From UHGV virus genome UHGV-0059442: DNA of 12,316 bases; one strand, 5' to 3'. The notes beneath the pieces were generated by a model, which was not told the DNA's origin, did not search any database, and saw only the letters and a program-made list of their open reading frames with translations. Shown here in pieces: positions 1-12,266 of this stretch. The DNA is from a virus. The number at the start of each line of letters is the position of its first letter. Position 1 is the stretch's first letter. The position numbers and the translations under genes were made by a program.

Positions 1-49
1 GCGTCCATCTTGCCTGTCGCCATCTTGAAATCATGCAAAGAGGTTTCAC

Positions 50-532
50 ATGGAAGAACTTCACTTTGTTTACATCAATGCAAATGGTCGTATCGGAGTT
101 CACTCAATACAGAGCATCAGTTATAGCGAAAATCATATACAGGGCATTTGTAAGAACACCGATCGAATAAAAACCTTCCGAAAAGACCGCATTCTTAAAC
201 AGTACGATTCACCAGAACAAGCCATTCAGGAATGCGCGTCATTCCTCCCCGAAAACTACTCACACCTCACTAAGCAGTCTGGTCCGAAAAAAAATACATT
301 CGATGTGTGTTTCACCGGATTTAAGAAAGCAGATAAAGAAAGATTGGTTGATAAGGCGAATGAACAAGGATTAACGGTAAGAACCTCTGTAACCCAAAGC
401 CTTCAGATGCTCTGTTGCGGTTACAATGCAGGCCCATCAAAAGTATCGGCAGCCAGGATGAAAGGCACAATCATCATAGATGAGCCTGGCTTTATACATT
501 TTCTTGAAACGGGTGAGATCCCAGATGAATAA
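50..532 (+). CDS. Hypothetical two-domain protein: N-terminal WYL-like domain, C-terminal BRCT-like domain
   Basis: Complete 160-aa ORF; in-frame stop at 26-28 upstream; AAGAGG Shine-Dalgarno about 7 nt before ATG at 50. N-terminal segment FVYINANGRIGVHSIQSISYSENHIQGICKNTDRIKTFRKDRI fits the WYL-domain pattern ending in R-x-FR-x-DRI. C-terminal segment FDVCFTGFKKADKERLVDKANEQGLTVRTSVTQSLQMLCCGYNAGPSKVSAARMKGTIIIDEPGFIHFL resembles a BRCT fold as found at the C-terminus of NAD-dependent DNA ligases. Noticeably lower GC than the adjacent phage late genes. Confidence 0.5.
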   Translation: MEELHFVYINANGRIGVHSIQSISYSENHIQGICKNTDRIKTFRKDRILKQYDSPEQAIQECASFLPENYSHLTKQSGPKKNTFDVCFTGFKKADKERLVDKANEQGLTVRTSVTQSLQMLCCGYNAGPSKVSAARMKGTIIIDEPGFIHFLETGEIPDE

Positions 533-558
533 AAACCTGCCGTAGCAGGTTCTCTTTC
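533..558. terminator. Putative bidirectional intrinsic terminator between converging ORF 50..532 and ogr
   Basis: Hairpin ACCTGC (535-540) / loop CGTA / GCAGGT (545-550), preceded by a run of A (531-534, giving a U-tract on the minus strand just after the ogr stop at 559) and followed by T-rich TCTCTTTCTC on the plus strand. Confidence 0.5.
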
Positions 559-777
559 TCAAAAATTCATATGCCCCTGACCACCTGGCAATGGATGTGG
601 AGGAGCAGTAGCAATCAGTGCGGGTGTCACAATAAACCGGACCACTGTTTCATGGGTAACAAAAGTGCTCCCGCAGTTAATATTTTGGCACTGGCAGTAA
701 CGCTCTTTGGTGCTTTCAGTTACTTGAAAACTGCTCCTTGTGTGTGCCGCATGACCACACTTTGGACAATTCATCAT
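559..777 (-). CDS. ogr: Ogr/Delta-family zinc-finger late-gene transcriptional activator
   Basis: Translation from the internal Met (MMNCPKCGHAAHTRSS...TKERYCQCQNINCGSTFVTHE...PHPLPGGQ) is about 72 aa with the C-x2-C...C-x4-C arrangement and strong resemblance to P2 Ogr; the 87-aa ORF in the track is an N-terminal over-extension. Putative SD (AGGGA) upstream of ATG at 777. Confidence 0.85.
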   Translation of the reverse strand: MMNCPKCGHAAHTRSSFQVTESTKERYCQCQNINCGSTFVTHETVVRFIVTPALIATAPPHPLPGGQGHMNF

Positions 778-845
778 ATCCAGATCCCTACCTTTGCTAT
801 CAGAATCATTGTAATGATACACAAAATATCAATATTGAGAACACT

Positions 846-1250
846 TCATTCCATTTCAAGATCATCAATCTTCACTTCGAGTTCAATACTGGTCGTAAAA
901 CCATTATTCAGCGTTTCCCGAAAATCAGCACTTCGCGCCCGGATAGTCAGGCGGTCCGGTGCGCCAGTGTGTTCAATCTCGTCCACTGTGAATGCCCCTT
1001 TCGGGAAAAGCGGCTGCCCCTTCCAGCCCAGCGCCAGCGTAATAACCGCACCACGGCGCGGCAGCACGATTTTTCCGTCAGCGTCATCCAGCTCCAGATC
1101 AAGCTGGTCCGCTTCAAAGCCCCGGTTATCCGTCAGCGTCAAACTCATCAGGCGGTTATCCAGCACAGTGGTGATATCCCTGCCCTCAATACTGATGCTG
1201 AATGCGGGAGTTTTGTTGCCTTTGTTAAGCAGTTCAGAGCTGAAATTCAC
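846..1250 (-). pseudogene. D: Tail protein D (late control gene D family) remnant, only 134 aa; probable internal in-frame deletion
   Basis: N-terminal ~115 aa carry the gpD-family signature (TDNRGFEADQLDLELDD...PRRGA...LGW.G...G.FTVDEIEHTGAPDRLTIRARSADF); the last ~18 aa (GFTTSIELEVKIDDLEME) look like a D-protein acidic C-terminus. Full-length P2-type D proteins are close to 390 aa. GTG start at 1250 overlaps the U stop (GTGA). Confidence 0.7.
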
Positions 1251-1426
1251 GACAGCAGCCCTCCCACCGTTTTACTGATATCGCTTAAGGCAGACGTTGC
1301 CGTGTCCTGCAGATTATTCAGTTGCGCACTGAGATCACCGAACATATCGGACAGGGATTCATCCACTCGTTTGAGCGACAGGGTGAACTCAATCCGGCGC
1401 GGCATACCGTCCCGGATAGAGAAAAA
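1247..1426 (-). pseudogene. U: Tail protein U, C-terminal fragment only
   Basis: PFFSIRDGMPRRIEFTLSLKRVDESLSDMFGDLSAQLNNLQ... matches the C-terminal part of P2-type gpU (the ...RKIDFTLSLTRVDESL... region); the N-terminal two thirds are absent and the frame upstream runs into the J reading frame. Confidence 0.65.
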
Positions 1427-2087
1427 TGGTGGCTTCCACACGGTACGGGATGATTTCTGCACTGCGAACCGTCAGACGGTCAGCCACCGGGCGGACGTTC
1501 TCACTGTTCAGGGCTTTTTCCACCACATCCAGCAGGTCTTTTTCTGCTGTTCCGTCGCCTTCGCGGCTAAGGACTGTCAGCACCACCTCTGCAGGTGCCG
1601 GACTGGTTGCACTGGCATCCGCCACCCGACCGTCGGCGCTTCGGGCATGAAATTCATAAGCTGCAGTTGGCCCCGCAACTGAAAGCCCCTCAAAGGCTGC
1701 AGGCACACGCAGGCGTAACGCTTCATCGCTTTCCATCACAGCTGCAACGGGCGGCACAGCGTCATCATCAGCAGGCGTCACCGTCAGGCGTTTCACGTTG
1801 TAGTTGGCAGCGAGCTGGTCCAGATCGCCGCCCATCGCGTAAGCCACCATCACCGCCTGCGCGGCTTCGTTAATGCGCTGGCGCAGAAGCAACTCACGGT
1901 AAGCGTTCTCCTGCAGCAATTTGGTGACGGGTTCAGATTCCAGTTCCAGCGTGCGGATCACAGCCTCCTGCTCATCTTTCGGATGAAGCGCCACAAATTC
2001 TGCCTTGCGTTCGGCAAGCAGCGTCTCAAAGTCCGGCACATCCACAATCTGCGGCGCAGGCAACTGCGAAAGGTCAATCACTGCCAT
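1389..2087 (-). pseudogene. J: Baseplate assembly protein J, N-terminal ~225 aa only (truncated)
   Basis: MAVIDLSQLPAPQIVDVPDFETLLAERKAEFVALHP...LESEPVTKLLQENAYRELLLRQRINEAAQAVM matches gpJ N-terminus; the ORF stops at 1389 after about 232 aa whereas gpJ is about 300 aa; start ATG at 2087 overlaps the W 3' end. Confidence 0.8.
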
Positions 2088-2433
2088 TCTCTGCTCCTGT
2101 TGATACGGAAAGGGACACAGGCACACCGTTATTCCGCCGCCCGGTCAGCTCCACCACCATTGAACCGTCAAAATTGCTGTTGATGGTGATGGAATCCAGC
2201 GTCAGCCGTGGCTCCCAGCGACTCAGTGCCACATACACAGCCGACATGACCTGCAGGCGTAACGCCGGATTTTGTGGCTGATCTATTAAAGCCGACAGCA
2301 GGGAACCATATTCCCGGCGGGCAATGCGGCTACCCTGCGGTGTCAGCAGAATGTCCCGCACCGACTGGCGCAGATGGTCAATATCAGTAATAGCTTTACC
2401 GCTGGTATTGTTCATCCCGCTATAAAGCGTCAT
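2074..2433 (-). CDS. W: Baseplate wedge protein W (GPW/gp25 family)
   Basis: 119 aa; ...DIDHLRQSVRDILLTPQGSRIARREYGSLLSALIDQPQNPA...RWEPR... is typical of gpW/gp25 lysozyme-like baseplate proteins; ATGA overlap with the V stop. Confidence 0.85.
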   Translation of the reverse strand: MTLYSGMNNTSGKAITDIDHLRQSVRDILLTPQGSRIARREYGSLLSALIDQPQNPALRLQVMSAVYVALSRWEPRLTLDSITINSNFDGSMVVELTGRRNNGVPVSLSVSTGAENGSD

Positions 2434-3008
2434 ACCGGACCTCCGGTGGTATCGCCGCCTTTCAGGACGCCAGTATGCTGATGCGCATCAACCACGATCC
2501 CGTTAGAACTCATCGCTCCGCCGCCCTGGGTAACGCCACCATTGATCACCACTTCGCTGTTAATGCGCGTGCGGTCAGCCTCCAGTACAAACTCACTGGT
2601 TTTCATGGTGATGTTGTCAGCGGCCTCAATGACCATTGATTTGATGCCCCTGACATACCAGCGCCCACTGGCGGGTTCGTATTCAAACCAGCCACCGTCA
2701 GGATGTTCTGTCACGCAGGCGTCCGCCGACGTCGACGGTGGTGCGAACTGATTCGAATAGACAGCGGGCAGCGCAAAGGCCGTCTCCAGATTGCCGCCCA
2801 GACTCAGCAGCACCACCTGCTCACCTTCCGATGGTTTCCACCATGTGCGGGCATTACCCGCGCGCAGCGTCAGCCAGTTAATCCAGTTGGTTTCAAGGTC
2901 GCCCGTTTTCACCCGGCAAAGCCAGTTTTCCCGGTCCACTTCGGTGACTACACCAGTGCGGATCAGGTTGGTGATAAGGCGCATGATTTCGGTTAATTGT
3001 GCGTTCAT
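2430..3008 (-). CDS. V: Baseplate spike/assembly protein V
   Basis: 192 aa; N-terminus MNAQLTEIMRLITNLIRTGVVTEVD...WINWLTLRAGNARTWWKPSEGEQV and C-terminal HTGV...GGDTTGGPV resemble P2 gpV. Confidence 0.85.
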   Translation of the reverse strand: MNAQLTEIMRLITNLIRTGVVTEVDRENWLCRVKTGDLETNWINWLTLRAGNARTWWKPSEGEQVVLLSLGGNLETAFALPAVYSNQFAPPSTSADACVTEHPDGGWFEYEPASGRWYVRGIKSMVIEAADNITMKTSEFVLEADRTRINSEVVINGGVTQGGGAMSSNGIVVDAHQHTGVLKGGDTTGGPV

Positions 3009-3054
3009 AGGGAAAGGTTGCCATCAGGGGAAGAAAGGCGGCAGTGCTGCAACT

Positions 3055-3072
3055 TGTATCAGTGCTGATACA
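3055..3072 (-). promoter_or_regulatory. Candidate Ogr-dependent late promoter element (TGT-N12-ACA dyad) upstream of V
   Basis: TGT (3055-3057) - 12 nt ATCAGTGCTGAT - ACA (3070-3072), embedded in the near-perfect palindrome TTGTATCAG TG CTGATACAA, located in the S-V intergenic gap directly upstream of the V start. Confidence 0.5.
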
Positions 3073-3076
3073 AAGA

Positions 3077-3523
3077 TCATCCCGCCAGCCATTGCAGAAT
3101 CATGTCGCGGGTCATTGCCTCAACATCATCATTTACACCCAGCAGGCGGCGCTCTGCGTAACGGACCTCCGGTCCTTTGCGACTGACGCGATCACGCAGG
3201 CCGTAATGGTGAACACGGGCAATACGCTGCACCTTGCCTTCAAACTGTACGCTGGCAGAGTCGGCGCTGGCGGCAGTTTTCAGGTATTTTGTGGTGCGCA
3301 ACTTTGCAAACATCTGACGTTTGATGCGGCCTTTCTTGCTGCGTGCTGTTACCCTGCGCGGTTCATAACTGCTGCCATCTGGATTGCGCTGCATCCTGAT
3401 ATTCTGCTGCTGTGTCCGGCGCAGTTCCTGCGCCAGCTGGCGCATCATGCGGCTTCTCGTGGCTGGTTCCAGATTCGCCAGCAAGGCACTCAGCCAGTCG
3501 TCCACCTTCTGCAGTTCAGCCAC
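3077..3523 (-). CDS. S: Tail completion / virion morphogenesis protein S
   Basis: 148 aa; position between R and V and the MAELQKVDDWLSALLANLEPATRSRMMRQLAQELRRTQQ... pattern fit the gpS family. Apparent GTG start at 3523, 4 nt after the R stop. Confidence 0.75.
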   Translation of the reverse strand: MAELQKVDDWLSALLANLEPATRSRMMRQLAQELRRTQQQNIRMQRNPDGSSYEPRRVTARSKKGRIKRQMFAKLRTTKYLKTAASADSASVQFEGKVQRIARVHHYGLRDRVSRKGPEVRYAERRLLGVNDDVEAMTRDMILQWLAG

Positions 3524-3947
3524 GTTTCACCGTCCACATTTCTTCAGGTGCATCAGGTTCCGCTATAGCTTCAACGCTCGACACACTGCCGTCAGTGCTG
3601 ACCAGCACACGTTCCGTCAGTTGCAGGTTCAGGCTGATATCACAGACATCGTTGCGCAGAATATCCACCTCAAAGGTGAATAGCTTTTCCCGTAACGCCG
3701 GGTTATTGATGGCATCGGGCTGGTTATCCCTCAGCCACAGCAAAACCGGGGCCATCAGCAGATTCTGGTCGCCGCTGAAATCCTCAATCACCGCGTTCAG
3801 TGTGTAACGGTACTCCCACGACATGGAGCTGGCCCCCGTGGCAACCAGCGAACCGTTATCCACAAACAGATGCAGTTTGTCCGGGTTATTGCGGACATAA
3901 GGCACCGCTTTATTGAGGGCGTGGCGCAGGGATTGTGGTTTGTTCAC
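3516..3947 (-). CDS. R: Tail completion protein R
   Basis: ...KPQSLRHALNKAVPYVRNNPDKLHLFVDNGS...YRYTLNAVIEDFSGD...PVLLWLRDNQPD resembles P2 gpR; I place the start at the GTG at 3947, preceded by an AGGAG SD, rather than the upstream start at 3968. Confidence 0.75.
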   Translation of the reverse strand: MNKPQSLRHALNKAVPYVRNNPDKLHLFVDNGSLVATGASSMSWEYRYTLNAVIEDFSGDQNLLMAPVLLWLRDNQPDAINNPALREKLFTFEVDILRNDVCDISLNLQLTERVLVSTDGSVSSVEAIAEPDAPEEMWTVKRG

Positions 3948-4200
3948 TGTTTCGCTCCTGACACGCAATAATCATGTCCACTTTGTCTGCACAGACCGCC
4001 CAGGCGGCCTCCGTTTCATCCAGCAACGCGTTCAGGCCACCGTTAGTGCGCGGCGCTGCCTGTCCCAGCCGACACGGCGTCACTCGCGGACAACCACTGA
4101 CGGTAAGCTGCACCTCCGGTGAGTGTGGGGCGTTCCCGCAGCCGGATAATGTCAGCAGGCAAAGGTGTATCAGCCCAGCGGCGTAAATCCTCGTTCTCAC
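3910..4200 (-). CDS. lysC: Outer-membrane lipoprotein spanin (Rz1-like), embedded out of frame in lysB and overlapping R
   Basis: Signal peptide with lipobox (MRTRIYAAGLIHLCLLTLSGC), Pro-rich mature part; nested in the +1 frame of lysB and extending into R exactly as P2 lysC does. Start uncertain (apparent GTG at 4200). Confidence 0.65.
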   Translation of the reverse strand: MRTRIYAAGLIHLCLLTLSGCGNAPHSPEVQLTVSGCPRVTPCRLGQAAPRTNGGLNALLDETEAAWAVCADKVDMIIACQERNSEQTTIPAPRPQ

Positions 4201-4471
4201 GTTTCAGTTCCTCAATCCGGTGTTGTCGTTGTCTCAGCAGTACACTGGTCTGTTCTGCTTCGGCATAGAGCCGCGCCTGCTCCCGGTTATTGGTTTCAGT
4301 CAGAATGGACAGGCTGATAAGCTGGCTATTGCTCTTTGCCAGTGCCTGGCTTTTGCTCTGCAGCTCGTCTGCCTGCGTGCTGATGGTCTGGCTGGCATCA
4401 GCCAGCCGCCACGTCTGCCAGCCCAGCGCCGCCAGTAATAACGCCAGCACAACCAGCAGCAACCGGTTCAT
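4043..4471 (-). CDS. lysB: Inner-membrane spanin (Rz-like)
   Basis: 142 aa; N-terminal transmembrane helix (MNRLLLVVLALLLAALGWQTW) followed by coiled-coil-like, Q/E/R-rich periplasmic domain; position immediately upstream of R with lysC embedded. Confidence 0.8.
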   Translation of the reverse strand: MNRLLLVVLALLLAALGWQTWRLADASQTISTQADELQSKSQALAKSNSQLISLSILTETNNREQARLYAEAEQTSVLLRQRQHRIEELKRENEDLRRWADTPLPADIIRLRERPTLTGGAAYRQWLSASDAVSAGTGSAAH

Positions 4472-4575
4472 GCTGATACCTGTTGCGCCATCTGATTACG
4501 GGTGATCCAGAAGGCAATAACGGTCAGTAGATAAAAGACCAGGGTAATAGCCCACCCCGTCCAGCGCCAATCGCT
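4471..4575 (-). pseudogene. Remnant 3' end of the gene preceding lysB (lysA-like membrane protein), ~33 codons
   Basis: Reading the minus strand in the frame whose TGA overlaps the lysB ATG (ATGA) gives ...DWRWTGWAITLVFYLLTVIAFWITRNQMAQQVSA*, a hydrophobic helix tail. The frame is closed by a stop about 35 codons upstream and there is no start, so only a C-terminal stub remains. Confidence 0.4.
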
Positions 4576-5084
4576 TTATGCAGACGCGCCCGTGACTGGT
4601 CCGGCATATCCAGACCGTCTGTCAGCTCCAGCGTCTGCAACAACAGATCGGCATCAAAGCCGGTGGCGGCAAGCATTGCGCTCTGCGCGGCGTCTGCCAT
4701 TTCCTCTGCCAGCACGGTCTGCACGTTGCGGTTACCCAGCGGCATCACCCAGCCATGACGCAGGGCATGACGCCCGATCTCCAGCGCCCCGGCATAATCT
4801 CCGGCATCAATGCGCCACAGCATCACGTACATCAGCACGTCATCCTGTTGAGCGCCTCCGGCAGCCAGGACACCCTCTGCCCAGGCGGCGTACTTCGGCA
4901 GCAGCTCCACCTTGATTTCCGCTTTTTTGACCGTGGACTGAACGCCCTTGAGACGGCGGCGGTCTTCCGCCAGTTGCAGCAGCATCAGGTCATAGCCCGA
5001 TGCGTGGCGAACACTGCCGCCCTCGCGGGCGGCCTGTTCAGCCTGAACGCGCAGGCGATGCTGCCGTGCGGGACTCAGGCTCAT
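4524..5084 (-). pseudogene. M: Terminase endonuclease (small) subunit M, C-terminally truncated
   Basis: MSLSPARQHRLRVQAEQAAREGG...LLPKYAAWAEGVLAAGGAQQDDVLMYVMLWRIDAGDYAGALEIGRHALRHG... matches P2 gpM over about 175 aa, then ends in a non-matching tail (...GRGGLLPWSFIY*) at 186 aa; P2 gpM is about 250 aa. Confidence 0.8.
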
Positions 5085-5087
5085 GGA

Positions 5088-6146
5088 TTACGCTCCGGTT
5101 TCGGCTGCGGCGGCGCTGAAATCACCAATCTGGATGTTTTCCACCAGTGCGGCGCAGCGGTAGTCCTCAACCACATAGGCTTCATTAACGGATTCAAAGT
5201 TTTCAATCCGGTCACGTTTCGGGTTGTCGATAACTGAACGGCGGCGGGTGTCTTCCTGCCAGTAGATGGACAGGTTATCCAGACGGGTGATCAGCAGCGC
5301 ATTCGGCGGGAAGAACGGCGCACGCACGGCCTGCAGGCCACCCATGCGTTTCTGGCTGATGATCATATCGGCAGCCAGTTTTTCACTGTTTTCCTGCTCT
5401 TTGTTGACCAGCGGGAAATACTTGTCAGACAACAGTTCACGACCGCAAATCACCACCAGATCGTCATCGTCCTGGTAAACCACGTCGATAAGCTCATTGA
5501 CGGCATCCATCACCACAGCGTCCAGGTTGGCATATTCGCCACCTTTCCCGACTTTCACCGCACCCGGAGTGGTTTCACCGCCCGTGGTGGTGCTGCCCAT
5601 GACGTGATCCGGTGCATCCTCACGGATTTTCTGCAGCCAGCCTTTGTTCACATCCTGCAGCAGCGGGTTTTCGCTACGGTTGGAGGTTTTCGCACGCTTC
5701 ACGCCGTTAAAGCCGATCATGATGCGGTCCAGTGCCTGACGTTTCACGATGGCGTCACGGATGCGCACCTGGAAATCCTGAAACTTCGCCCACAGATCCA
5801 GCTTCGCGTAGGTCAGCACCGTGTCAAAGTTGGTCTGCTCGCATTTATATTCCACATCGACCATCAGGGTCGGATCGACGGGTTCACGCTCTTTCGCGGT
5901 GGTGTCAGTGGTTCCGGCAATGGTGCTGCCAACACCCAGCCCCAGCAGCTGACCGGACTGCTCAGTCACTGGCGTGACGTTAATCAGCGTCAGGAAAGCG
6001 GCGGACTGCTGGATCTGGTCCTCCAGCGTCTGCTGCACAGACGGCTCCACAGTGAATTTGCTGGACAGTTCTTCAACTGCCACACCGTTCAGACGCGCCA
6101 GCTGCTGCAGGTAAGCGTTAAAAGCAAAGCGGGTATTCTTCTTCAT
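5088..6146 (-). CDS. N: Major capsid protein N
   Basis: 352 aa, size and sequence typical of P2 gpN; immediately downstream of O, with its stop 3 nt before the M start. Confidence 0.9.
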   Translation of the reverse strand: MKKNTRFAFNAYLQQLARLNGVAVEELSSKFTVEPSVQQTLEDQIQQSAAFLTLINVTPVTEQSGQLLGLGVGSTIAGTTDTTAKEREPVDPTLMVDVEYKCEQTNFDTVLTYAKLDLWAKFQDFQVRIRDAIVKRQALDRIMIGFNGVKRAKTSNRSENPLLQDVNKGWLQKIREDAPDHVMGSTTTGGETTPGAVKVGKGGEYANLDAVVMDAVNELIDVVYQDDDDLVVICGRELLSDKYFPLVNKEQENSEKLAADMIISQKRMGGLQAVRAPFFPPNALLITRLDNLSIYWQEDTRRRSVIDNPKRDRIENFESVNEAYVVEDYRCAALVENIQIGDFSAAAAETGA

Positions 6147-6162
6147 CGGGTTTTGTGCTCCA

Positions 6163-6996
6163 TCAGCAATTGGTCAGAGTGTCAGCGGGGGCGTTACCGC
6201 CTGTTGCACGCTGGCGGTAGTCCTGGCGGCTGTCTACATGACTCAGCTTATTCACCAGTTCGTTAAAGGCGGTCTGCTGTGCCTGCAGGGCAGTCTCCAG
6301 CTCAGACAGACGTTCTTCCTGCTCAGACAGGGATTTTTCGGTGCGTGCGCTCAGGTTCTGCTGCTCAGTGGCGACCAGCTCCACGGCCTTATGCACATCA
6401 GAGAACCGGGCGTCATCGGACTGCTCTTTTTTGGTAAACAGCGCCGTGACGCGGGCAAACAGGGACGGTTTGTCGTCCTGGACTTCTTCCAGTTCGATCA
6501 CCGTTTCCTCTGCGGCGGTAAAGAGATTGGCGGGATTCTGCTTGCGGTTTGCCAGCGGGTTATGGGCTGCACTGGCGCTGAATGTCAGCATTTCAGTGCC
6601 CAGACTGGCAGGGTCATCAGTGGCAGCCAGGCCGACCAGGTAGGCTTTGCCCGTATCAGCGAACTTCGGGCTGACTTCCATAGAGGTGAATAATTTCTGG
6701 CCTTTTTTCACCAGCTCCACCAGGGACTCCGTTGGCTCAACGTCGGCATACAGCGCCATCTTGCCTGCCAGCGGACCTTCCGTGATTTCTTCAGCAAACA
6801 GCGCCGTCACCTTGCCGTAGCGGTTAAAGGTGCTGTCCGGCAGATAAGACTTGATGTGCTCAAGGTTAATCAGCGCGGTATACACCGCCGGGTTATAGCT
6901 GGCTGCCATCTGTTCCAGCCATTCACGCTGGATTTCGCGTCCGTCGGTGGTGGCACCTTCCACCCCGATGCGAAAACGCTTTGCTTTCACTGTCAT
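6163..6996 (-). CDS. O: Capsid scaffolding protein O
   Basis: 277 aa; FRIGVEGATTDGREI...INLEH...YLVGLAATDDPASLGTE...SDDARFSDVH...ATGG...TNC closely resembles P2 gpO; GGAG SD about 9 nt upstream of ATG at 6996. Confidence 0.9.
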   Translation of the reverse strand: MTVKAKRFRIGVEGATTDGREIQREWLEQMAASYNPAVYTALINLEHIKSYLPDSTFNRYGKVTALFAEEITEGPLAGKMALYADVEPTESLVELVKKGQKLFTSMEVSPKFADTGKAYLVGLAATDDPASLGTEMLTFSASAAHNPLANRKQNPANLFTAAEETVIELEEVQDDKPSLFARVTALFTKKEQSDDARFSDVHKAVELVATEQQNLSARTEKSLSEQEERLSELETALQAQQTAFNELVNKLSHVDSRQDYRQRATGGNAPADTLTNC

Positions 6997-7009: not shown

Positions 7010-7432
7010 TTAGAAAAAACTTACTGGAGCCTTATGGTTGCGGTGATAGGGGCAGTGAAACAATGCGCGGTATTTGTACCGACAACCGTGACGATTGAGA
7101 TACAGGAAATATACCGCTTTCATGAAATCAGTAATTTCAGTTGAGTAATTAAACTCCTGCCTTATGTTGTAATAAGCTACCTCCCTGTTTGCGATCTCAA
7201 ATAAAACTCTGGCGCGAGATATAAACGATTCACAATCAGCGGCAACCTTTTTATAGAGGTTGATTAAATCAGGATTAATATCCGCAACCAGATAGCTGGG
7301 GTAATCCGTCTCCATCATCACAGCACAGGAACCCGCGAAAGGTTCAACCAGTCGCGGGCCAGCAGGAAGGTGTTTTTTCAGTTCGGACATAATGGCGGTT
7401 TTATTTCCCGCCCATTTCAGGATGGTGCTCAT
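7010..7432 (-). pseudogene. dam: DNA adenine methyltransferase (Dam, D12 class), N-terminal ~120 aa only
   Basis: From the internal Met: MSTILKWAGNKTAIMSELKKHLPAGPRLVEPFAGSCAVMMETDYPSYLVADINPDLINLYKKV...FLYLNRHGCRY... carries the AdoMet-binding motif (EPFAGS) and aligns with the first part of E. coli Dam, but the ORF ends at 7010 without the catalytic DPPY motif. Start ATGA-overlaps the upstream traR-like gene. Confidence 0.8.
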
Positions 7433-7656
7433 ACAGCACCTCCGTTGTAATGTTTGCCTTTCAGCTCTGCGATTTCCTGACAGGTAATGCAAAGCTGCAC
7501 ACCTGGAATGGCGCGGCGGCGTGCTGGCGGAATTGGCGCTTCACACTCAATGCAAAGCACGCGGGACACGCCCGGCGTTTTGGCACGGGCAGCACGGATA
7601 TGGCGCTGGCGTTCTTCTTCAACGCGCTGCTGTACAAGATCCATTGCATCAGCCAT
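7429..7656 (-). CDS. TraR/DksA-family C4 zinc-finger protein (phage early region)
   Basis: 75 aa with CIECEAPIPPARRRAIPGVQLCITCQ (C-x2-C-x17-C-x2-C); AGGAG SD upstream of ATG at 7656. Confidence 0.7.
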   Translation of the reverse strand: MADAMDLVQQRVEEERQRHIRAARAKTPGVSRVLCIECEAPIPPARRRAIPGVQLCITCQEIAELKGKHYNGGAV

Positions 7657-9270: not shown

Positions 9271-9310
9271 CTCTCGATTAAGGTTTGGTTTACGTCGTTT
9301 TATCTTGTTT

Positions 9311-9364
9311 TATTTGATTCAATATTTGATACACCAAGATACTACGATCCAATATTTGATACGT
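9311..9364. repeat. Direct repeats of an ATTTGATA-containing motif (candidate CI operators) overlapping pR
   Basis: GATTCAATATTTGATACAC (9316-9334) and GATCCAATATTTGATACGT (9346-9364), 17 of 19 identical, 30 bp apart; a further TATTTGAT at 9311-9318. Confidence 0.5.
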
Positions 9365-9367
9365 CAA
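9339..9367 (-). promoter_or_regulatory. Candidate lytic promoter pR for apl-cII operon
   Basis: On the minus strand TTGACG (9367-9362) - 17 nt - TAGTAT (9344-9339); strong sigma-70 match, oriented toward apl. Confidence 0.5.
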
Positions 9368-9379
9368 CAGGATTAAAAA

Positions 9380-10012
9380 ATGATACAAGTAAAAGCTGGC
9401 GAGAATACAGGGGGAAGAGAGGCTATCCATAGGCTAATGGCAGCCTATGATTTCAAGTCCAGACAGCAACTTTGCGATCACTTGGGCGCATCAAAAAGCA
9501 CTATGGCAAACAGATACTTAAGAGATAGTTTTCCTGCAGAATGGGTGATTCAGTGCGCTTTGGAAACAGGAGTTTCTTTACTGTGGCTAACTACCGGACA
9601 GGGCGATCCAGGTTCAAACATTGACCCTAAAAGAAATATCAATTCCGTGAACTCTAGCAAAGTTAAACCTCTTTCGGAGCTTGTATCTCCTGAAATTGAC
9701 AAGGCAACTCTCAACGGAGGTTTGCTGATCGATGCTGGAAAAGCAATCATTGATAGCAGCATACTCCCCTCAGACTCAAGCAACCTGCTGCTGGTGACTA
9801 CTTCTGGTGATTCTTATTTAATAGATCGCAACCAAACACCACCAGTAAATGGTACGTGGTTAGTGGACATCGACGGGATAAAAAGCATTGTAAAATTGAC
9901 ACGACTCCCGGGAAACAGATTAGTAGTGCATCAGGATGATTCATCGTTTGAGTGCGAACTGGATGACATTGAGGTAATAGGCCGCGCACTGAAAATCATT
10001 AAGAGCCTTTGA
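9380..10012 (+). CDS. cI: CI-type immunity repressor (186-like, HTH N-terminal domain plus C-terminal domain)
   Basis: 210 aa; N-terminal HTH (SRQQLCDHLGASKSTMANRYLRDSFPAEWVIQCALETGVSLLWL); sits immediately upstream of int and divergent from apl. Size fits 186 CI rather than the ~100-aa P2 C. Confidence 0.8.
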   Translation: MIQVKAGENTGGREAIHRLMAAYDFKSRQQLCDHLGASKSTMANRYLRDSFPAEWVIQCALETGVSLLWLTTGQGDPGSNIDPKRNINSVNSSKVKPLSELVSPEIDKATLNGGLLIDAGKAIIDSSILPSDSSNLLLVTTSGDSYLIDRNQTPPVNGTWLVDIDGIKSIVKLTRLPGNRLVVHQDDSSFECELDDIEVIGRALKIIKSL

Positions 10013-10013
10013 T

Positions 10014-11036
10014 ATGACCATCAGAAAACAGCCGAACGGAAAGTGGTTATGTGAATGCTACCCAAACGGGCGAGATGGCAAACGCGTACGCAAACAATTT
10101 GCGACGAAAGGCGAAGCCATTGCGTTTGAGAATTTCACCATGGACGAGGTAAACAAGAAACCTTGGCTAGGAGAAAAAGAAGATCGGCGACAACTGTCAG
10201 AAGTGATTGAGCAGTGGTATTCCCTGTATGGTCAGACACTCGCTGACCCAAAGCGTTTGATGGCAAAATTAAAAATTATTTGTACCGGTCTCGGCAATCC
10301 TATTGCCTCGGAACTGACAGCAGGTGATTTCACAAAATATCGGGAAGCCAGATTAAAGGGGGAGGTCAAAAATGAAGACGGTGTTTTCATGTCCCCCGTA
10401 AAACCTCGCACGGTTAATCTTGAGCAGCGTAACCTGTCATCTGTATTCGGCACATTGAAAAAACTAGGACACTGGTCAGCACCAAACCCATTGGCAGGGC
10501 TTCCAACATTTAAAATTGCTGAAGGTGAATTGGCATTCCTATCTCAGGAGGAAATTAAACGCCTACTTGACGCCTGCGCAAACTCTCAAAATCCAAGTCT
10601 GTTGATGATCGCAAAGGTATGCTTGGCTACCGGCGCGCGCTGGAGTGAAGCGGAAAACTTACAGGGCCACCAATTATCAAAATACCGTATTACCTATACA
10701 AAGACGAAAGGAAAGAAAAATAGGACAGTACCGATATCTCAGGCTCTCTATGACGAACTCCCCAAAAACAGAGGGAAGTTATTCACGCCATGCAGAAAGG
10801 CTTTTGAACGAGCGGTCAAACGGGCTGGTATTGAACTGCCTGAAGGTCAGTGTACCCATGTTCTGCGCCATACATTCGCCAGTCATTTTATGATGAACGG
10901 TGGAAACATACTCGTTTTGAAAGATATTCTTGGGCATTCAGATATTAAAATGACTATGATTTATGCACATTTTTCCCCTGATCATTTAGAAGATGCAGTA
11001 ACTAAAAATCCACTTTATTCGCTATTAAAGGACTAA
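10014..11036 (+). CDS. int: Tyrosine integrase (P2/186 family)
   Basis: 340 aa; C-terminal catalytic region ...HVLRHTFASHFMMNGGNILVLKDILGHSDIKMTMIYAHF... with conserved Arg, His-x-x-Arg and Tyr; ATG 1 nt after the cI stop. Confidence 0.9.
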   Translation: MTIRKQPNGKWLCECYPNGRDGKRVRKQFATKGEAIAFENFTMDEVNKKPWLGEKEDRRQLSEVIEQWYSLYGQTLADPKRLMAKLKIICTGLGNPIASELTAGDFTKYREARLKGEVKNEDGVFMSPVKPRTVNLEQRNLSSVFGTLKKLGHWSAPNPLAGLPTFKIAEGELAFLSQEEIKRLLDACANSQNPSLLMIAKVCLATGARWSEAENLQGHQLSKYRITYTKTKGKKNRTVPISQALYDELPKNRGKLFTPCRKAFERAVKRAGIELPEGQCTHVLRHTFASHFMMNGGNILVLKDILGHSDIKMTMIYAHFSPDHLEDAVTKNPLYSLLKD

Positions 11037-11039
11037 ATA

Positions 11040-12266
11040 ATGACTCTCCATCAAACTTTATCTAAAGAATTAAGAGATTTATTTGTTAGTATTTTAAGAC
11101 GTTCTCTTTTTCGCCCCCCCATCAAAATAAATGGGGATATAGTCTCTGATTTTTCAAACAGATGCGAGCAGTTCAAAGAGTGCCTAAATGAATACATTTG
11201 TGATAACAATAATGCTGCTTCCGAAAGAGTTAAGCCAAGAATTAAAACTATTGAAAAAATACAACATGGATTAACTAATTCTCTTAAAGCATTTTTATCT
11301 GGCGACATTAAAGGAGCCTACGATATTTTTGATGAAGTTTTATCATACCCTACTGTCTATAGACATCTAAGAAGAATATCCATTCCACTAAAAGAAATAT
11401 GTAATAAGCACAAGCCTTTATTCAGGGTAAGAAAGTCAGATAGACCAGTCGTAACAAGAAAGGAAATATTTCATATCCCATTCACTCATCGACATCTTGT
11501 CAATGCTCAACGCTACTCCGTTGCAGGTTTGCCATGCCTTTACTTAGGTTCATCTCTCTATATATGCTGGCAGGAAATGGATAAACCTGACTTTGATAAA
11601 TTATACCTATCATCATTTATATCTTGGGATGAGGAATCTTATATTTTAAATTTAGCTGCAGATTTTCTTTACAGTAGAACCGCTAAAGGATTTTACGGTG
11701 ATATTAGTAATAGAGATAACCTCATTAAAATATCATATTTAACTTTATGGCCTCTGATAATTGCATGTAATTATTTAAAGCAGAATGAAAACTCTTCATT
11801 TAATCAAGAATATATCATCCCAAATTTGTTAATGCAGTGGATAAGTCGACTTGAAGATAGAGCTATTGTCGGCATAGCATATCGCTCAACAAAAATAAAA
11901 AGAACAGCAAACTCACACTTAGCAACTAATGTCGTCTTGCCTCCAAAAGTAAACTATGAAGATACAATCACAAAACCTTATTGTCAGAAACTATTGTCAA
12001 TGTTTGAGTTTACTCAACCTGTATCATGGCAGGTTTTGAAAACATTAGACTATAAAATTGATAATGAAATAAATCAAGAGCAAGAAAAAGCAATTCATTT
12101 ACTAAAACAGAAAGAAAGATTAAGTGGCATACAAGATTTAAATGAAGATCTTATAAACCTTTATCCTTTAACAGACTTCTACAAGCTAGAACAGTGCATG
12201 GATCGCCTGCTACAGTATGATGTACTTGAGATAAAATCTGGCGGCACTTTGGCGGCAGAGCATTAA
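11040..12266 (+). CDS. RES-domain protein with N- and C-terminal extensions (putative standalone toxin/defence effector)
   Basis: 408-aa ORF, ATG 3 nt after the int stop; strongly AT-rich. Central region shows RES-domain hallmarks: LFRVRK..., AQRYSVAGLPCLYLGSSLYICWQEM (compare the G-R-W-N...P-x-L-Y...E core of RES toxins) and the C-terminal motif IAYRSTKIKRTANSHLATNVVLPP (compare ...PSA...N-x-V-L). About 125 aa upstream and 100 aa downstream of the RES core are unassigned. Confidence 0.6.
   Translation: MTLHQTLSKELRDLFVSILRRSLFRPPIKINGDIVSDFSNRCEQFKECLNEYICDNNNAASERVKPRIKTIEKIQHGLTNSLKAFLSGDIKGAYDIFDEVLSYPTVYRHLRRISIPLKEICNKHKPLFRVRKSDRPVVTRKEIFHIPFTHRHLVNAQRYSVAGLPCLYLGSSLYICWQEMDKPDFDKLYLSSFISWDEESYILNLAADFLYSRTAKGFYGDISNRDNLIKISYLTLWPLIIACNYLKQNENSSFNQEYIIPNLLMQWISRLEDRAIVGIAYRSTKIKRTANSHLATNVVLPPKVNYEDTITKPYCQKLLSMFEFTQPVSWQVLKTLDYKIDNEINQEQEKAIHLLKQKERLSGIQDLNEDLINLYPLTDFYKLEQCMDRLLQYDVLEIKSGGTLAAEH

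Follow-up and report, generated by a model that had tools for sequence, protein, structure and literature searches.

A WYL-BRCT cargo protein of 186/P2-like prophages and its possible role in excluding foreign phage DNA

What does a temperate phage gain from a small protein that joins a sensor-type WYL domain to a BRCT domain and to nothing else? The question is raised by the first gene of the stretch of DNA analysed here, 12,316 nucleotides from the UHGV virus genome UHGV-0059442 (hereafter the window), in which a 160-residue protein is encoded on the plus strand at positions 50-532, convergent with the late-gene activator gene ogr. The gene is an accessory one, carried as cargo by a 186/P2-like temperate phage that has integrated at ssrA, and its product belongs to a family that is already catalogued yet functionally uncharacterised. 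We tentatively read the protein as a lysogen-expressed, non-catalytic binder of single-stranded DNA (ssDNA) and 5'-phosphate DNA ends that would exclude foreign phage DNA, a reading to which we assign a probability of about 0.35. New here are the placement of the gene beside the immunity repressor, the description of variants that are membrane-anchored or joined to an unannotated domain (domain X), and the correction of the database labels "DNA ligase" and "exonuclease", which are wrong for this family and should be replaced.

The gene, its product and the protein family

The gene and the domains of its product are laid out as follows:
50..532, plus strand: coding sequence (CDS) of the WYL-BRCT protein, 160 amino acids, start ATG, stop TAA (open reading frame (ORF) list)
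38..43, plus strand: Shine-Dalgarno sequence AAGAGG, 6 nt 5' of the ATG (sequence reading)
50..214, plus strand: WYL-type five-stranded beta-barrel, residues 1-55, with conserved Y8, T42 and F43 and a KTFRKDRI motif
215..298, plus strand: linker, residues 56-83, two short helices followed by a low-confidence stretch (AlphaFold2 (AF2) model)
299..520, plus strand: BRCT domain of the RFC1/LigA type, residues 84-157, with invariant F88-T89-G90-F91 and K131
534..551, unstranded: hairpin terminator common to the convergent WYL-BRCT gene and ogr (terminator scan of the plus strand, folding of both strands)
559..777, minus strand: ogr, late-gene activator with a zinc finger, the convergent neighbour (ORF list; RefSeq annotation of the identical S88 region)

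The gene is real: as the original prediction, made from the sequence alone, had it, the ORF is complete, is preceded by a good Shine-Dalgarno sequence, has a lower G+C content than the phage late genes (42.5% in window 1-480 vs 55-63% in 1200-6900) and ends 26 bp from the ogr stop (gap 533-558, the minus-strand ogr ORF including its stop at 559). The predicted hairpin with A/T runs on either side likewise fills the gap, reading AACCTGC-CGTA-GCAGGTT with a T-rich tail on both strands. A consensus scan calls it a terminator on the plus strand only (14534-14551 of locus L001); folding relative to shuffled sequence gave -11.8 kcal/mol (z -3.1) on the plus strand and -17.7 kcal/mol (z -3.8) on the minus strand, and as it folds better on the latter it is the stronger terminator for ogr. 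The span of 50-558 originally given to the feature is right as to the plus-strand gene but too long, since the CDS ends at 532 and the extension to 558 takes in the terminator.

Both domains that had been proposed, a WYL-like one in the N-terminal ~55 residues and a BRCT module in the C-terminal ~80, were recovered. For the first, the Pfam model PF13280 did not match the window protein itself at E ≤ 10, and a PDB profile search with the N-terminal halves only reached PafBC at a non-significant E-value of 1.7. The link was significant only with a broader family profile and a fold search: PF13280 was matched by 8 of 38 close homologues and by 22 of 54 longer ones (best E-value 1.2e-8), the broad profile matched the WYL regions of PafC (4.7e-4) and PafBC (1.2e-3), and the domain adopts an Sm-like five-strand barrel, so that family-member homology and fold together place it among WYL domains. 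The motif K41-T42-F43-R44-x-D46-R47, part of KTFRKDRIL at residues 41-49, is conserved, with R44 and R47 missing in some divergent members.

The BRCT domain (residues 84-157) was assigned by model match and by its beta-alpha-beta-beta-alpha-beta-alpha fold. The Pfam model PF00533 scored 19.5 bits on the window protein, against a cut-off of 21.3, and matched 34 of the 38 homologues; the closest sequence relatives were the BRCT domains of Rfc1 (7.4e-10) and Thermus LigA (2e-9). BRCT domains that bind phosphate do so with a serine or threonine followed by glycine in the beta1-alpha1 loop and a lysine at the start of alpha2 (PMC10386641). The window protein belongs to this subclass through T89, G90 and K131, which align with T166, G167 and K209 of Rfc1 and are, together with F88 and F91, invariant in the 38 sequences. 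The AF2 model had a predicted local distance difference test score (pLDDT) of 91, with a mean of 67 over residues 71-80, and its predicted template modelling score was 0.51 despite the high pLDDT, which suggests that the two domains are loosely coupled by a flexible linker.

The absence of a helix-turn-helix (HTH) and of an enzymatic domain was also correctly predicted: no HTH match was obtained, and the WYL domain starts at residue 1 and is followed by nothing but linker and BRCT. The characterized WYL proteins CapW, BrxR, PafBC and DriD carry a winged HTH and a WCX domain; the window protein has neither, and holds a BRCT domain in place of the WCX half of the ssDNA crevice. It is therefore no transcription factor of the CapW/BrxR type, and an HTH-type WYL regulator of winged HTH-WYL-WCX architecture was rejected as an identity.

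The original prediction further considered this an unusual minimal architecture, which did not hold up. The protein matches PHROG 2561 over its full length (residues 1-159 on profile positions 2-167 of 167, E-value 2.2e-77), and a WYL+BRCT fusion is among the WYL architectures listed by Makarova et al. in 2014 (PMC4012209). A word-indexed search returned 122 relatives, mostly of ~160 amino acids, and when 1.84 billion cluster representatives (clustered at 50% identity) were searched exhaustively with a profile, 2706 matched at E ≤ 1e-3, 890 at ≤ 1e-10 and 202 at ≤ 1e-30. Most family members are stand-alone proteins of ~160 residues. In an IMG/VR scan, nearly all matches were near-identical E. 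coli (Escherichia coli) prophage ends. No functional study of WYL-BRCT proteins was found in the literature on WYL and BRCT domains, prophages, defence, superinfection and the Mannheimia phage PHL101.

Purifying selection on the gene is strong, with ratios of nonsynonymous to synonymous substitution rates (dN/dS) of 0.04-0.13 in unsaturated pairs of enterobacterial orthologues, every one of which is 159-160 residues long; a pseudogene was rejected on these values. The family is labelled "DNA ligase" in PHROG 2561 and in RefSeq phage records, and also "putative exonuclease". The NCBIfam matches to LigA are limited to the BRCT end at the C-terminus of the models (positions ~549-664), with scores of 11-20 against cut-offs of 369-1051, and the match to the DEDDh exonuclease model NF004719 covers only residues 76-153 on positions 229-307 of 331, with 26 bits against a cut-off of 389. 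As these matches are confined to the BRCT end and fall far below the cut-offs, both labels are mis-annotations. PHROG 2561 and the RefSeq protein WP_000391794.1 show no structural difference from the window protein, and the name "DNA ligase" is a mislabel in that only the BRCT end is LigA-like. LigA was rejected as an identity because adenylation, OB, Zn-finger and HhH domains are missing and 160 residues are too short for the catalytic domains, and a DEDDh exonuclease because there is no exonuclease domain; a truncated form of either enzyme was rejected on the NCBIfam matches.

Longer members reveal two variant forms. Of the 150 best cluster representatives, 54 exceed 240 residues, and these 54 share no recurrent extra Pfam domain. 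A simple Kyte-Doolittle scan found one to five hydrophobic transmembrane-like segments, mostly N-terminal, in 36 of them; the family thus has membrane-anchored relatives, which are predicted to make up about a quarter of the best-matching clusters. The second form involves domain X, a region of ~150-200 residues that corresponds to the C-terminal half of phrog_36782, has no Pfam match and shows the motif GYAAGW..AV...LDIK...WTQG..F.F..GD...LQV...DF..LLQ.G. Domain X is either fused to the WYL-BRCT module, at its C-terminal side (P0132, P0158, P0173, P0177, P0187) or its N-terminal side (P0122, P0124, P0127), or encoded by an adjacent gene (the downstream ORFs at loci L018 and L036, the upstream ORF at L053).

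A cargo gene on the lysogeny side of the prophage

Whether the gene is prophage cargo or a host gene at the integration site had been left undecided by the original prediction; the att repeats and phage genome records settle it in favour of cargo. Window 1-900 matches 199 of 5426 complete E. coli genomes, in which the annotated order is "BRCT domain-containing protein" or "hypothetical protein", ogr, late control gene D. In the complete 186/P2-like prophage of E. coli S88, the counterpart of window 1-900 is 99.8% identical at the DNA level (region-level comparison), encodes WP_000391794.1 (RefSeq, "BRCT domain-containing protein") and lies in the order smpB, ssrA (tmRNA), WP_000391794.1, ogr, D, U, T and onwards. 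The 3' end of ssrA forms a direct repeat of 46-47 bp, with one copy in S88 on the ssrA side and the other ~34 kb further on, beyond CI, int and a 408-residue ORF. These repeats bracket the prophage, and the WYL-BRCT gene is therefore inside it, between attL and ogr; a host gene at the integration site was rejected accordingly.

Furthermore, 28 phage genome records contain the gene, among them Escherichia phages Cartapus and 500465-1 and Yersinia phage MLG42. It adjoins attP in the Cartapus and MLG42 records (the attP alignment being that of Cartapus), and the Cartapus order is CI, int, a 401-residue ORF, attP, the WYL-BRCT gene and convergent ogr, with an attP that includes the ssrA 3' end plus a copy of the ssrA terminator. 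In the window, the corresponding genes lie at the far end:
9380..12266, plus strand: lysogeny-side unit, made up of CI (9380-10012), integrase (10014-11036) and the 408-residue ORF (11040-12266) (Pfam, S88 att repeats, Cartapus order)

When the phage excises as a circle, this unit and the WYL-BRCT gene come to lie side by side across attP and point the same way, and the gene holds a lysogeny-side position.

A comparable position is found in distant relatives, where the gene usually follows the immunity repressor directly and is often followed by variable, defence-like cargo. In PHL101 the WYL-BRCT gene (ORF34) begins 4 nt after a CI-like repressor, in Vibrio phage PV94 the order is CI/HTH repressor, WYL-BRCT gene, hypothetical gene, int, and in Burkholderia phages it is XRE, hypothetical gene, WYL-BRCT gene, convergent D. 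A context scan of GTDB (one genome per species, 50 loci, with crude ORF calls of our own) revealed a co-directional upstream ORF within 150 nt at 28 of the 50 loci. Pfam matches among these 28 ORFs were HTH_3 (9), Phage_CI_repr (8), Peptidase_S24 (7) and Phage_CI_C (5); we read 15 of the 28 as immunity repressors, most of them separated from the gene by 0-31 nt, and at 3 further loci a repressor lies two or three genes upstream. As two unrelated types of repressor stand beside the gene, a shared expression context is indicated rather than a specific partnership with CI. The gene-ogr/D arrangement of the window recurs at six loci (L006-L010, L013), with smpB called just upstream at four. The WYL-BRCT gene thus travels repeatedly in the transcription unit that P2-like prophages carry on their lysogeny side.

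Hydrophobic N-terminal forms of the protein occupy the same post-repressor slot at L041, L046 and L050. Downstream neighbours vary by locus and include a KAP NTPase, a GmrSD_N+HNH protein, AbiTii, a DUF7380-DUF4209 protein and membrane proteins; upstream neighbours at other loci include AbiGi and an MrcB_N-domain protein. Two intervals of P2-like phages, int to att and int to the primase gene, are known as minor hotspots for defence genes (PMC13586616). At one locus, in Pseudomaricurvus albidus (L021), the gene is flanked by an AbiGi-like gene and an AbiTii gene, and no P2-type marker (CI, Int, D, U or ogr) was found among the neighbours there.

The attP surroundings and the remainder of the prophage

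The sequence 5' of the gene belongs to the phage attachment region:
1..49, plus strand: 5' leader of the WYL-BRCT gene, from the phage attP arm (alignment of S88 attL, Cartapus attP and four other enterobacterial loci)
14-23, plus strand: CTGTCGCCAT in the leader, an inverted copy of ATGGCGACAG, the latter just 5' of the window

A strong ssrA-type terminator lies ~85 bp 5' of the ATG, in the prophage and in the free-phage attP alike. A motif, GTGGCGGCAAAATGGCGACAG, is conserved 3' of this terminator at all aligned enterobacterial loci, and a related copy is found on the opposite arm of the Cartapus attP. In E. coli, GTGGCGGCAAAATGGCGACAG and CTGTCGCCAT (window 14-23) form a perfect 10-bp inverted repeat, and these repeats are probably arm-type sites of the integrase; besides window 14-23, the positions concerned are L001 13976-13996 and L003 4215-4245. 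No P2 late-promoter element (TGT-N12-ACA) was seen by eye upstream of the gene.

Compared with the S88-type prophage, that of the window is a decayed copy, with deletions at 846-1462, 4562-4564 and 7084-7087. The D gene has lost 693 bp in frame and encodes 134 residues instead of 366, the stretch between U' and J' is shorter by 8.8 kb (junction 1411-1416), a 1.9-kb segment with lysis and head-completion genes is gone, and a further 8.2 kb comprising P, Q, cargo, A and part of Dam is missing. As a result of this last deletion, a D12-class Dam methyltransferase is truncated (window 7010-7492, minus strand; 160 residues on positions 1-124 of the 253-position Pfam model). The WYL-BRCT, ogr, CI, int and 408-residue ORFs are still intact. 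A search of 80 IMG/VR loci recovered neither the deletion junction in D nor the one between U' and J', and no complete E. coli genome gave an uninterrupted match to window 1-1600.

The 408-residue ORF (11040-12266, plus strand), located between int and attR, is very AT-rich (32-34% G+C). It matches PHROG 7835 ("unknown function", E-value 7e-179), has no match in Pfam or PADLOC, and its Cartapus homologue is annotated as "putative RES protein, NAD+ binding domain". The ORF occupies the int-att minor defence hotspot of P2-like phages (PMC13586616). The cargo slot between V and S (window 3008-3119) is empty, where S88 has a 1.7-kb gene of the AIPR family. By megablast, nothing in S88 matches window 9275-9902, in the CI/operator region, and int shares only 79% identity (region 9275-11012); although both prophages use the ssrA site, they therefore differ in immunity and integrase allele.

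Possible functions of the WYL-BRCT protein

The domains offer a starting point for function. WYL domains bind ssDNA in CapW, DriD and PafBC (PMC11662680). BRCT domains of the LigA/RFC1 class bind DNA, at 5'-phosphorylated ends or nicks, rather than phosphopeptide; the isolated BRCT domain of human RFC1 binds recessed 5'-phosphate DNA with a Kd of ~10 nM, and lysines of the Rfc1 BRCT line the site for the 5'-DNA (PMC9293004). The window protein has the T-G and K phosphate-pocket positions in common with the LigA and RFC1 BRCTs; these belong to proteins with adenylation, OB, Zn and HhH or AAA+ parts, none of which it has, its BRCT domain being paired only with WYL.

We infer a DNA-binding specificity, expression in the lysogen and a role in exclusion. 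The protein is soluble and non-catalytic, its WYL beta-barrel joined by a flexible linker to a single RFC1/LigA-class BRCT domain, and would be made in the lysogen. There it would bind 5'-phosphate-bearing nicks, cohesive ends or junctions of single- and double-stranded DNA, such as occur on injected or replicating foreign phage DNA. Occupancy of such ends may block ligation, recombination or replication, and the outcome would be superinfection exclusion or defence without an enzyme, by a logic like that of lambda rexAB or P2 tin, which are lysogen-expressed exclusion genes of temperate phages. The genomic logic is shared with lambda rexAB (after cI) and P2 tin, old and fun, all of them accessory genes on the lysogeny side or in prophage hotspots; these have no sequence or fold kinship to the WYL-BRCT protein, for which exclusion is our proposal. 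We consider exclusion the most likely role because the gene lies on the lysogeny side, keeps defence-like company, has membrane-anchored equivalents and is strongly conserved. Membrane-type forms in the post-repressor slot would fit an action at the site where DNA enters the cell, and the ORF has stayed intact in a heavily deleted prophage.

Several observations weigh against exclusion by DNA-end binding. The ssDNA crevice of CapW is completed by WCX, which the WYL-BRCT protein lacks (PMC11662680), and in full RFC the BRCT domain binds DNA differently from the isolated domain, with no 5'-phosphate preference seen (PMC9293004); DNA binding and phage exclusion are argued by analogy. A promoter scan found no sigma-70-like promoter on the plus strand in the ~85 bp between the ssrA-type terminator and the ATG. 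In the E. coli lineage int, the 408-residue ORF, attP and the strong ssrA-type terminator intervene between CI and the gene, which may be transcribed there by read-through of the terminator or from a non-consensus promoter. The only match in PADLOC-DB v2 is partial (residues 83-153 on positions 335-406 of 411 of the candidate PDC-S48, E-value 1.8e-7), with no full-length match to a known or candidate defence component in that database. Small two-domain look-alikes occur in other phages, e.g. Vibrio phage SSP002. Finally, recent decay alone could explain why the gene is retained in the decayed prophage.

A more specific and bolder form of the proposal, unlikely as it stands, is an enzyme-free prophage immunity, in which a soluble or inner-membrane-tethered WYL-BRCT protein, co-expressed with the repressor, would cap the 5'-phosphate ends, nicks and cohesive ends of incoming phage DNA and so prevent its sealing or replication. 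In a mirror image of this, the WYL domain would act as a decoy, mopping up the ssDNA signal by which host regulators of the CapW/BrxR type switch on CBASS or BREX.

The tight and repeated linkage to repressors, of both the 186-CI and the S24/LexA type, could instead mean that the protein tunes the lysis-lysogeny switch of its own prophage. It would then sense ssDNA gaps and 5' junctions made by damage and either dampen the loading of RecA at the RecFOR entry site, stabilising lysogeny, or relay damage to CI or Int. The original prediction had also supposed that the protein might sense DNA damage or nucleotide signals, a plausible idea. WYL regulators are indeed DNA-damage sensors (PMC11662680), and DinI-like genes, which act on RecA, are present in the same prophages. 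However, since the linked repressors come from two unrelated families, a common operon position is more in keeping with the linkage than a specific partner, repressors of the S24 type already sense RecA* directly, the membrane-anchored variants in the same slot fit poorly, and in E. coli attP and the terminator uncouple the gene from CI. We regard this explanation as doubtful.

Distinctly unlikely, in our view, is a multi-gene system with the WYL-BRCT protein as its sensor or adaptor, in which a nucleic-acid cue would activate or localise an effector, be it the variable downstream cargo, the fused domain X or the 408-residue ORF of E. coli. The occurrence of domain X both fused to the module and as a separate adjacent gene speaks for such a system, as do the KAP NTPase, GmrSD-like protein, AbiTii and AbiGi among the neighbours and the AT-rich 408-residue ORF, which is co-directional across attP and conserved in Cartapus. 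On the other hand, the neighbours change between loci without a single conserved partner, Yersinia phage MLG42 and many other loci have no effector-like neighbour, and most family members stand alone at ~160 residues.

The kinship of the BRCT domain with those of LigA and RFC1 would also suit a protein that serves the phage's own DNA, either as a nick- or end-binding cofactor in trans that brings host LigA or repair enzymes to nicks or to the cos ends, or as a counter-defence decoy that sequesters the ssDNA signals of host WYL regulators; ssDNA is known to derepress CapW and BrxR (PMC11662680). T5-like phages provide a precedent in the stand-alone, BRCT-bearing B subunit of their split ligase (PDB 9hu3_B; Eps7), likewise a small phage BRCT protein, which works in trans on nicked DNA. 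The likeness to subunit B is weak, though, extends over the BRCT domain only and is no better than to other BRCTs (E-values 0.04-0.18). Subunit B has no WYL domain, and the present phage lacks the ligase A subunit and hence the catalytic partner. In addition, a site on the lysogeny side, away from the early lytic genes, is atypical for an infection factor or an anti-defence gene. We find this reading very improbable.

That the ORF is no more than a degenerate, functionless piece of a disrupted host gene or an NAD-dependent DNA ligase, as its labels and the weak NCBIfam matches to LigA and a DEDDh exonuclease might suggest and as the original prediction had allowed (a truncated ligase fragment, or the 3' fragment of a host gene), is effectively refuted by the restriction of those matches to the BRCT end of the models, the full-length match to the 167-position PHROG profile, the confidently predicted two-domain fold, the strong purifying selection, the hundreds of relatives of the same length and the location inside the prophage rather than in host DNA.

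WYL domains have so far been seen as ligand sensors joined to HTH regulators or to defence enzymes. Here the sensor is joined only to a BRCT domain of the DNA-end-binding type, and the resulting protein is carried by many P2-like and some other phages beside the immunity repressor. If the protein does bind damaged or incoming DNA in lysogens, it would represent a minimal, enzyme-free way to exclude rivals or to read DNA damage, and would offer a simple handle on what WYL domains recognise in vivo.

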